Shown here piece after piece: positions 51,264 to 51,288 of a stretch of DNA of 64,000 nt (the first letter of the stretch is position 1; the number at the start of each line of letters is the position of its first letter). The stretch is taken from assembly GCF_058153355.1 (NCBI RefSeq), contig NZ_CM177019.1; one strand, written 5' to 3'. The notes under the pieces are model-generated. The model had not been told where the DNA came from and did no database searches. It saw only the letters and a list, made by a program, of their open reading frames with translations. A program made the translations under genes and the position numbers.

Positions 51264-51288
51264 CAGCGCCGTCAGGCGCTGTTTTTTT
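51264..51288 (+). terminator. Intrinsic terminator inside the IS621 right end, oriented to stop transcription entering from the ypfH side
   Basis: Stem cagcgcc/ggcgctg with loop gtca, followed by a T7 run; repeated at 63916-63940 in the second copy. Confidence 0.5.

Follow-up and report, generated by a model that had tools for sequence, protein, structure and literature searches.

The locus analyzed here raises the question of what a GC-rich hairpin with a directly adjoining run of T residues does just inside one end of an insertion sequence, on the strand antisense to the only gene of that element. An earlier note on this DNA had read the structure as an intrinsic terminator that stops read-through from the neighboring gene and thereby insulates the element from its insertion context. 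The shielding of insertion sequences from outside transcription by terminators or other devices is an established idea, and the element concerned, IS621, is the prototype bridge-RNA recombinase, which is under engineering as a genome-editing tool. To our knowledge, the 105-nt right end of IS621 has so far been treated only as the carrier of a -35 box and a donor half-site. In the following, the window is the whole stretch of DNA that was analyzed (64,000 nucleotides), and all coordinates refer to it unless an accession is given.

Identity and boundaries of the element

Judged by its gene, its ends and its flanking cores, the repeat in the window, which lies on the minus strand, is the IS110-family element IS621, the prototype among bridge-RNA elements. 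Copy 1 spans 51199-52480 (minus strand) with both flanking CT cores included, which appear on the plus strand as AG at 51199-51200 and 52479-52480. Copy 2, also on the minus strand, starts near 63848, and its recombinase gene is cut off by the end of the window; in a self-BLAST the repeat started at 51196 and 63848, and the match of copy 2 reached the window end. The recombinase gene of copy 1 (51306-52286, minus strand) codes for a protein of 326 aa that matched Pfam PF01548 (E = 1.8e-24) and PF02371 (E = 3.9e-26), corresponding to the N-terminal DEDD/RuvC-like and the C-terminal Tnp domains, and it differed from the published IS621 protein at 4 of 326 aa. The right end (RE; 105 nt, 51201-51305, minus strand) is non-coding and holds two hairpins, HP1 and HP2, an A run and the -35 box of the junction promoter, while the left end (LE; 192 nt, 52287-52478, minus strand), located by alignment to the published LE, encodes the bridge RNA. 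Compared with the published ends (supplement of PMC11208160), the LE carried 2 substitutions and 1 insertion, and the RE 5 substitutions, all of which lie outside HP1 and its T run. The features expected of IS621 were found together, namely the bridge-RNA LE, the RE, CT cores at both ends, the lack of terminal inverted repeats, and the donor junction ACAGTATCT-TGTAT. In RefSeq, homologous copies are labeled 'IS110-like element IS621 family transposase', and a near full-length copy is present in 1,591 of 5,426 complete E. coli genomes; roughly 19,000 IS621 places were listed in 5,142 E. coli genomes.

The boundaries were set from copy 2 of the window, other E. coli copies, and the published IS621 ends, because the spacer between ypfH and the REP differs between strains. 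K-12 was rejected as an exact empty site, as its spacer reads ACCTGGCCTGAT, while CCTGGT-AG-GCCTGAT is implied here. On the minus strand, the ends read ...GGC-CT-TGTATTATCCC at the LE and ...AACAGTAT-CT-ACC at the RE, and ACC follows the core in both window copies. With the core at 51199-51200, HP1 starts 62-64 bp inside the element. The structure is thus internal to IS621, as the earlier note had it, and the distance of 60 bp given there is corrected to 62-64 bp from the core.

A REP pair (BIME; 52481-52556, minus strand) flanks the LE, and the nearer of its REP hairpins directly adjoins the CT core, where the LE begins with a U-rich stretch. The Rfam family naRNA4, which is REP-derived, matched 52480-52556 with 89 bits. 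Of 8 E. coli copies examined, 6 had a REP hairpin directly at the LE core; it was weakened in one copy (L194), and none was found at the pseudogene copy of UTI89. Copy 1 therefore sits at a REP site, as IS621 does.

Two further observations concern the LE. At about 52399-52406 (LE nt 73-80, minus strand), copy 1 reads GGGCCTTAGGTTTTCAACC where the published bridge RNA has GGGCCTTGGGTTCTAACC, a difference of 2 substitutions and a 1-nt insertion. This stretch presumably falls in the target-binding-loop part of the bridge RNA, and the variant might shift target preference. In the E. coli genomes NZ_AP021998.1 (2141298-2141403), NZ_OZ040331.1, and NZ_CP107234.1, stretches of about 100 nt without an annotated IS match the outer LE plus REP (query 1252-1359) with 88-91% identity, and these could be solo LEs or bridge-RNA remnants.

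The hairpin and T run on the two strands

HP1 lies at 51263-51282 on the plus strand and consists of ACAGCGCC (51263-51270), the loop GTCA (51271-51274), and GGCGCTGT (51275-51282). The T tract at 51283-51289 reads TTTTTT and then C, and together with T51282 it makes a run of seven T residues directly 3' of the stem, so that the full plus-strand reading of 51263-51289 is ACAGCGCC-GTCA-GGCGCTGT-TTTTTTC. The stem of 8 bp, with 6 G-C pairs and a 4-nt loop, is within the range of intrinsic terminator hairpins (stem of 5-14 bp, loop of 3-8 nt), and the T7 at 51282-51288, the first T of which closes the stem, corresponds to the U tract of about 7-9 nt that follows immediately 3' of such hairpins. 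These results bear out the earlier description of a canonical hairpin plus T7 on the plus strand, antisense to the recombinase; the span of 51264-51288 given for it is the equivalent 7-bp stem plus T7. That both copies of the element carry the hairpin was also correct, since an identical HP1 and T7 lies at 63915-63941 (plus strand) inside IS621 copy 2. The exact 27-mer occurred twice in the window, at 51263 and 63915, against an expectation of 0.00.

The isolated HP1 folded at -15.1 kcal/mol as plus-strand RNA, and the minimum-energy fold of its 121-nt context includes the hairpin. In a consensus scan of 47000-54000, the HP1 site ranked first among terminator-like sites. A site was counted as strict if a terminal hairpin at -12 kcal/mol or better was followed at once by a run of six or more T residues, and both strands of the 64-kb window were searched. 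Five such sites were found, two of them the HP1 copies, versus 0 in 30 dinucleotide shuffles, and the remaining sites resemble ordinary gene-end terminators. A chance origin of the hairpin and T run is excluded. In an Rfam scan of 50000-54000, no family matched at HP1 (51263-51289, E of 1 or better), and only the flanking REPs and a chance snoRNA match were returned. Elsewhere in the window, a hairpin GGCGACA..TGTCGCC at about 54760-54812 has T runs on both strands (sites 54807, plus, and 54784, minus), and looks like a bidirectional terminator.

The two strands of HP1 differ clearly in what follows the stem. The T-tail score was 4.45 on the plus strand versus 0.87 on the recombinase-sense strand, and a d'Aubenton-Carafa-type score, which is a rough guide only, was +37 versus -33. 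On the recombinase-sense strand an A7 precedes the stem and the tail after it reads GUCUGGCAUGCC, and a U tract as found in intrinsic terminators is missing from this minus strand. With U6-7 on the plus strand and none on the sense strand, HP1 is a candidate for a one-way terminator facing inward from the RE boundary, and the one-strand, inward-facing anatomy put forward in the earlier note agrees with these tail scores.

The position of HP1, 18-43 nt downstream of the recombinase stop codon, would also suit the recombinase gene's own terminator, or a bidirectional one, that halts sense RNA before it reaches the flank or, on the circle, the junction promoter. The A7 before HP1 on the sense strand is as in bidirectional terminators, and stopping ahead of the junction promoter would be sensible on the circle. 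However, the sense tail (GUCUGGCAUGCC in IS621) is U-rich in no orthologue, with scores of 1.6 or less and a rough d of -33, and the U tract that defines an intrinsic terminator is therefore absent from the sense strand. A direct test for a bidirectional terminator gave the same answer, as the sense tail GTCTGGCATGCC scored 0.87 and a U-rich sense tail was found in 0 orthologues. Nor did we find a sense-strand terminator anywhere in the RE. A terminator serving the recombinase transcript itself is thus highly improbable, and the inward-facing terminator remains our reading of the T run.

Two other candidates at this position were rejected. A 50-aa minus-strand ORF (51139-51291) crosses HP1, but its ATG is not conserved in the orthologues and its frame exits the element. 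An antisense small RNA with its own promoter was dismissed as well, as there was no promoter-like plus-strand site between the flank and HP1.

The right end among relatives

Right ends were gathered from protein homologues, from the contigs that carry them, and from a scan of 100,044 species genomes. The conservation set consisted of 14 distinct sequences with a long RE, aligned over a recombinase identity of 100% to 71%. The HP1 stem was kept in all 14, and 96% of its cells were paired. The loops varied freely (TGAC, ATGT, AGAA, CAGAGA, GGGATGT, and TTCCG), and the linker between HP1 and the stop codon could not be aligned across the set. Covariation was limited to a single compensatory change of G-C to A-U (K. 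michiganensis and mg_P0030), the stem being otherwise almost invariant; in some lineages it was lengthened to 10-13 bp, and extensions by G.U pairs that are specific to the sense strand were seen in Phytobacter, mg_P0009, and S. electus. This pattern clearly points to selection on the HP1 hairpin. A near-invariant stem with one covarying pair is unusual for a plain terminator.

The T tract was less uniform than the stem. It was strong in IS621 (4.45), Superficieibacter BNK-5 (4.2), mg_P0007 (4.0), and K. michiganensis (3.45), which represent both deep long-RE groups, and intermediate in Phytobacter and P. vulneris (2.5-3.2). A weak tract was found in S. electus, the Citrobacter fragment, and mg_P0009, with the tail TTATCTCC, in K. 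grimontii (TCATCC), in mg_P0030 (CTATTCAC), and in mg_L006. The sense-side tail was U-rich in 0 of the 14 long-RE sequences (score of 1.6 or less), and the antisense side was pyrimidine-rich in most. By our own count, the first 8 tail nucleotides contain on average about 4.3 T on the antisense side versus about 2.3 on the sense side. Within E. coli, the recombinase gene was intact in seven copies, and each of these, like copy 2 of the window, had HP1 and T7 unchanged; the sole altered tract (TTGTTTC) belongs to the frameshifted UTI89 copy.

The long RE is itself not universal. In short-RE elements, which lack the hairpin, the stop codon overlaps or abuts the terminal ...CATAACAGTATCT; this type includes Enterobacter MGH 24 (82% identity), Pseudenterobacter, Buttiauxella, Cedecea, and every relative with an identity of 64% or less. 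Long-RE elements have about 100 nt extra, which separate a His codon that is conserved from the terminal block AAAATGCTTGC...TAACAGTATCT; in short-RE relatives this block is still coding (..ENACxA and stop). The comparison covered 51201-51330 of the window and the loci L014, L037, L005, and L031. In a neighbor-joining tree, the long-RE elements fell into two groups with short-RE lineages nested between them, and the module has thus been lost, gained, or exchanged more than once. Short-RE relatives are multi-copy and occupy the same insertion context without the long RE. The module is therefore accessory and dispensable for mobility, and insulation is not essential. A 22-bp donor is enough for recombination when the bridge RNA is given in trans (PMC11208160), which fits a regulatory accessory role of the RE module.

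Such a patchy distribution invites the view that HP1 is a functionless relic of the roughly 100-nt insertion or duplication behind the long RE, such as a host terminator that was captured, and that its conservation reflects hitch-hiking. The long RE is indeed an insertion relative to the short-RE relatives, which are multi-copy and evidently mobile. But linker and loop have diverged almost fully while the stem is kept in 14 of 14 sequences with a compensatory change, and HP1 and T7 are unchanged in the E. coli copies with an intact recombinase gene, the altered tract occurring only in a frameshifted one. Given this conservation pattern, a relic appears unlikely, and it is the least probable of the readings considered here.

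A second element of interest is mg_P0024, which has a recombinase of 75% identity and an unrelated RE of about 108 nt with hairpins of its own (L186 and L187, about 1237-1345). One of these, GCCAGC..GCTGGC, overlaps the -35 region and is followed by CTCTTTTTTTCC on the antisense strand, which gives a hairpin plus T7 facing inward. By its sequence this RE is a second, independent inward-facing terminator-like design. A DNA-pattern scan of metagenomes for the RE terminus GCNGGCDNTNACAGTATCT returned at least 120 stretches; 4 were IS621-like, and no new lineage was present among the matches listed. Several lineages (S. electus, the Citrobacter fragment, mg_P0009, and mg_L006) have GATAACAG at the bases before and within the 5' arm of HP1 (alignment columns 25-34), which repeats the terminal donor half-site GATAACAGTATCT; this repeat could be a trace of the origin of the module.

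The rest of the RE is structured as well. When the ends are joined, they create a sigma-70 promoter with a -35 TTGCAG from the RE (51219-51214, minus strand, within the 3' arm of HP2), a spacing of 17 nt, and a -10 TATTAT from the LE (52476-52471, minus strand). The junction promoter on the IS621 circle has been described (PMC11208160, PMC11208158), as has the layout of promoter and bridge RNA in the LE (PMC11208160). HP2 (51212-51253, minus strand) is formed by GCCTGCAA, its sense 5' arm (plus coordinates 51246-51253), which pairs with TTGCAGGC (51212-51219, containing TTGCAG), and it encloses a small hairpin at about 51231-51245. An A7 run at 51221-51227 on the minus strand (T7 on the plus strand) lies directly 5' of the -35 hexamer and resembles a proximal UP-element subsite; an A-rich run is kept there in all long-RE lineages. 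In the long-RE alignment, the HP2 pairs included 7 G.U cells versus 0 A.C cells on the recombinase-sense strand, and in diverged lineages HP2 was rebuilt, the -35 there pairing with another inserted stretch (GGCAAC, CCCGGCAA). The confinement of the G.U pairs to the sense strand is a hint that the RE also functions as sense RNA, and suggests that it is also read in this form. The same comparison of G.U and A.C pairs had no informative cells in HP1, which contains no G.U pairs.

The main rival to the inward terminator follows from here. HP1 may primarily be a structure of the recombinase-sense RNA, a stable stem-loop 18-25 nt past the stop codon that makes up, together with HP2, a structured 3' UTR, acting against 3'-to-5' exonucleases or in another RNA-level role, and the T run would then be incidental or a secondary gain. 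This would account for a stem that is kept in every long-RE lineage, with or without a T tract, and that always lies just past the recombinase stop codon. The 7 G.U versus 0 A.C cells of HP2, its rebuilding in diverged lineages, and the lengthening of HP1 by sense-specific G.U pairs in Phytobacter, mg_P0009, and S. electus point in the same direction. However, HP1 itself yields no strand information, as it has no G.U pairs. The RE also lacks a sense terminator, so transcripts would end outside the element, with HP2 as the outer barrier and HP1 redundant. It would also be left unexplained why T is enriched on the antisense side of most lineages, why four of these have T6-7, and why mg_P0024 has an independent hairpin plus T7. 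We consider a primary role of HP1 in sense RNA possible but rather doubtful.

Transcriptional context and comparison with known systems

The inward-facing terminator requires transcription that arrives from the RE-side flank, and the host context was examined in 9 E. coli copies, 2 in the window and 7 fetched with annotation. A host gene reads into the RE in 7 of the 9 (ypfH, a 347-aa ORF at 62749-63792, hybG, asmA, ybiA, yaeF, and ybaL). HP1 is thus placed downstream of a transcription unit reading toward it, as a terminator should be, both at ypfH and in most of the other contexts. In 4 of these insertions the stop codon on the RE side is 9-33 nt from the core, which leaves no room for a native terminator. 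The second gene is usually transcribed toward the LE, and the element typically lies between convergent genes in the E. coli copies; by ORF calling, the convergent layout also predominated at the Klebsiella, Phytobacter, Superficieibacter, and Enterobacter copies. Insertion has left the REP or BIME that once followed the RE-side gene beyond the other end of the element. Since a gene reads into the RE in most insertions, inbound antisense transcription at the RE is the rule, and HP1 with its T run is what it meets first.

At copy 1, the neighboring gene is ypfH (50489-51189, plus strand), as the earlier note had recognized. It is transcribed toward the RE, its stop codon (51187-51189) is 9 nt from the core, and the homologous region is annotated in K-12. 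An in-frame TAG at 50716-50718 splits ypfH into ORFs of 84 and 154 aa, and the gene is probably a pseudogene in this strain. The lost translation of ypfH could lower read-through into the IS via Rho.

Taken together, we put at slightly better than even the chance that HP1 and the T run form an inward-facing intrinsic terminator that insulates IS621 and supplies the 3' end of the neighboring gene. IS621 inserts at the base of REP hairpins, and as the genes on either side are usually convergent, its RE normally abuts the 3' end of a host gene severed from its own REP or terminator. RNA polymerase entering from the RE-side flank would move on the strand antisense to the recombinase, transcribe the GC-rich hairpin and then the U6-7 tract, and be released after about 90 nt of the element, short of both the recombinase gene and the bridge-RNA region. 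The recombinase and the bridge RNA would thereby be kept free of antisense RNA and transcriptional interference, and the host mRNA would be given a defined 3' end. The beneficiary may be the element, which would be spared antisense RNA, or the host gene, which would gain a replacement 3' end. The observed anatomy, strand asymmetry, hairpin conservation, boundaries, and host context are the basis of this reading, and termination, its efficiency, and its beneficiary are what we infer from them. About half of the hairpin-bearing lineages have a weak T tract, so that termination by itself does not account for selection on the stem, and the conserved HP1 may have a role that is different from, or additional to, termination. 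The earlier proposal of an inward terminator that insulates the element is therefore upheld in part: the anatomy, the intact IS621 copies, and the host context agree with it, while the weak T tract in about half of the lineages and the absence of the module from multi-copy relatives speak against it.

If the RE terminator works, it would explain how IS621 tolerates its usual position directly behind host genes, and insertions of the element would redefine the 3' ends of neighboring mRNAs such as those of ypfH, hybG, asmA, and ybaL. It would also matter for reporter or cargo designs that read through a full-length RE. Durrant et al. (PMC11208160) observed a near-twofold gain of GFP on truncating RE-LE to 22 bp, the placement of GFP being stated merely as 'upstream' of the donor. 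As antisense read-through of the RE by the reporter was not specified, this gain says nothing on an RE terminator. The searchable literature on IS621 and IS110, including PMC11208160 and PMC11208158, makes no mention of a terminator in the RE, and contains no Term-seq or 3'-end data for IS621-bearing strains and no termination assay at HP1. A terminator that lies within the IS621 RE and blocks antisense transcription is thus not described there, and it would be an expected kind of feature rather than a new mechanism.

A terminator at the opposite end has been reported for ISPpu10 of the IS110 family, in which it keeps the integrated element quiescent, as shown by reporter assay (bioRxiv 10.64898/2026.03.19.712850). 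If it works, the RE terminator of IS621 would complement the LE-side logic given in this 2026 preprint. In IS621, the U-rich LE stretch directly after the REP hairpin and CT core is TGTATTATCC, and on the recombinase-sense strand the site has the look of a hybrid terminator like that of ISPpu10. At 52479-52515 (minus strand), and also at the LE flanks in L190, L191, L192, L193, and L002, a whole REP hairpin, the CT core, and the U-rich LE start (CUUGUAUUAUCC, tail score 1.64) were observed in succession.

A wider picture can be drawn tentatively. The RE of about 100 nt in the IS621 clade may be no spacer but an acquired, structured accessory module that combines the inward terminator (HP1 and T run), a sense hairpin pairing the -35 of the junction promoter, and a UP-like A run; with the REP-plus-U-rich hybrid site at the LE, it would provide transcriptional insulation on two sides, and the HP1 stem would have a second role at the RNA level. 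We would not put this combined scheme above a speculative possibility. If it is true, two-sided insulation lets a bridge-RNA element sit cheaply between convergent host genes, and the RE module replaces the displaced host 3' end and keeps antisense RNA off the guide RNA.

Compared with known systems, HP1 is most like the Rho-independent terminators of E. coli, with which it shares a GC-rich stem of 7-8 bp, a tetraloop, and 6-7 U residues that follow immediately, and it is comparable to the best gene-end sites in the window. Unlike these, the HP1 candidate lies inside a mobile element and antisense to its only gene, and it would end no transcription unit of the element. ISPpu10 and IS621 are alike in being IS110-family bridge-RNA elements that sit at REP-like hairpins and have a junction promoter only on the circle, and the ISPpu10 terminator shields the element, once integrated, from transcription arriving from outside, as is predicted here for the HP1 candidate. 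In ISPpu10, the terminator combines the hairpin of the target with the poly-U of the element; it lies at the LE junction, blocks sense read-in toward the bridge RNA, and is dismantled on excision. In contrast, the HP1 candidate is wholly internal and at the RE (62-90 bp from the boundary), would act on antisense read-in, travels with the element, and does not have the features of a hybrid-type site. It is the IS621 LE that appears to carry the counterpart of the ISPpu10 site.

Classical insertion sequences such as IS1, IS2, IS10, and IS50 also limit the effect of host transcription that runs into them, and they are polar on the genes behind them. These cases mostly concern sense read-through that activates the transposase, which is handled by sequestration of the ribosome-binding site or by Rho-dependent polarity, whereas the HP1 candidate would be a discrete intrinsic terminator in a non-coding end, directed against antisense read-in. 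The stem-loops that REPs and BIMEs form in 3' UTRs resemble HP1 as stable, GC-rich extragenic hairpins downstream of a gene. However, there is no sequence similarity between them, no Rfam family matched at HP1 while the flanking REPs reached 89 bits, and REPs have no U tract. IS621 displaces the REP of the host gene, and HP1 would take over as its 3' structure.
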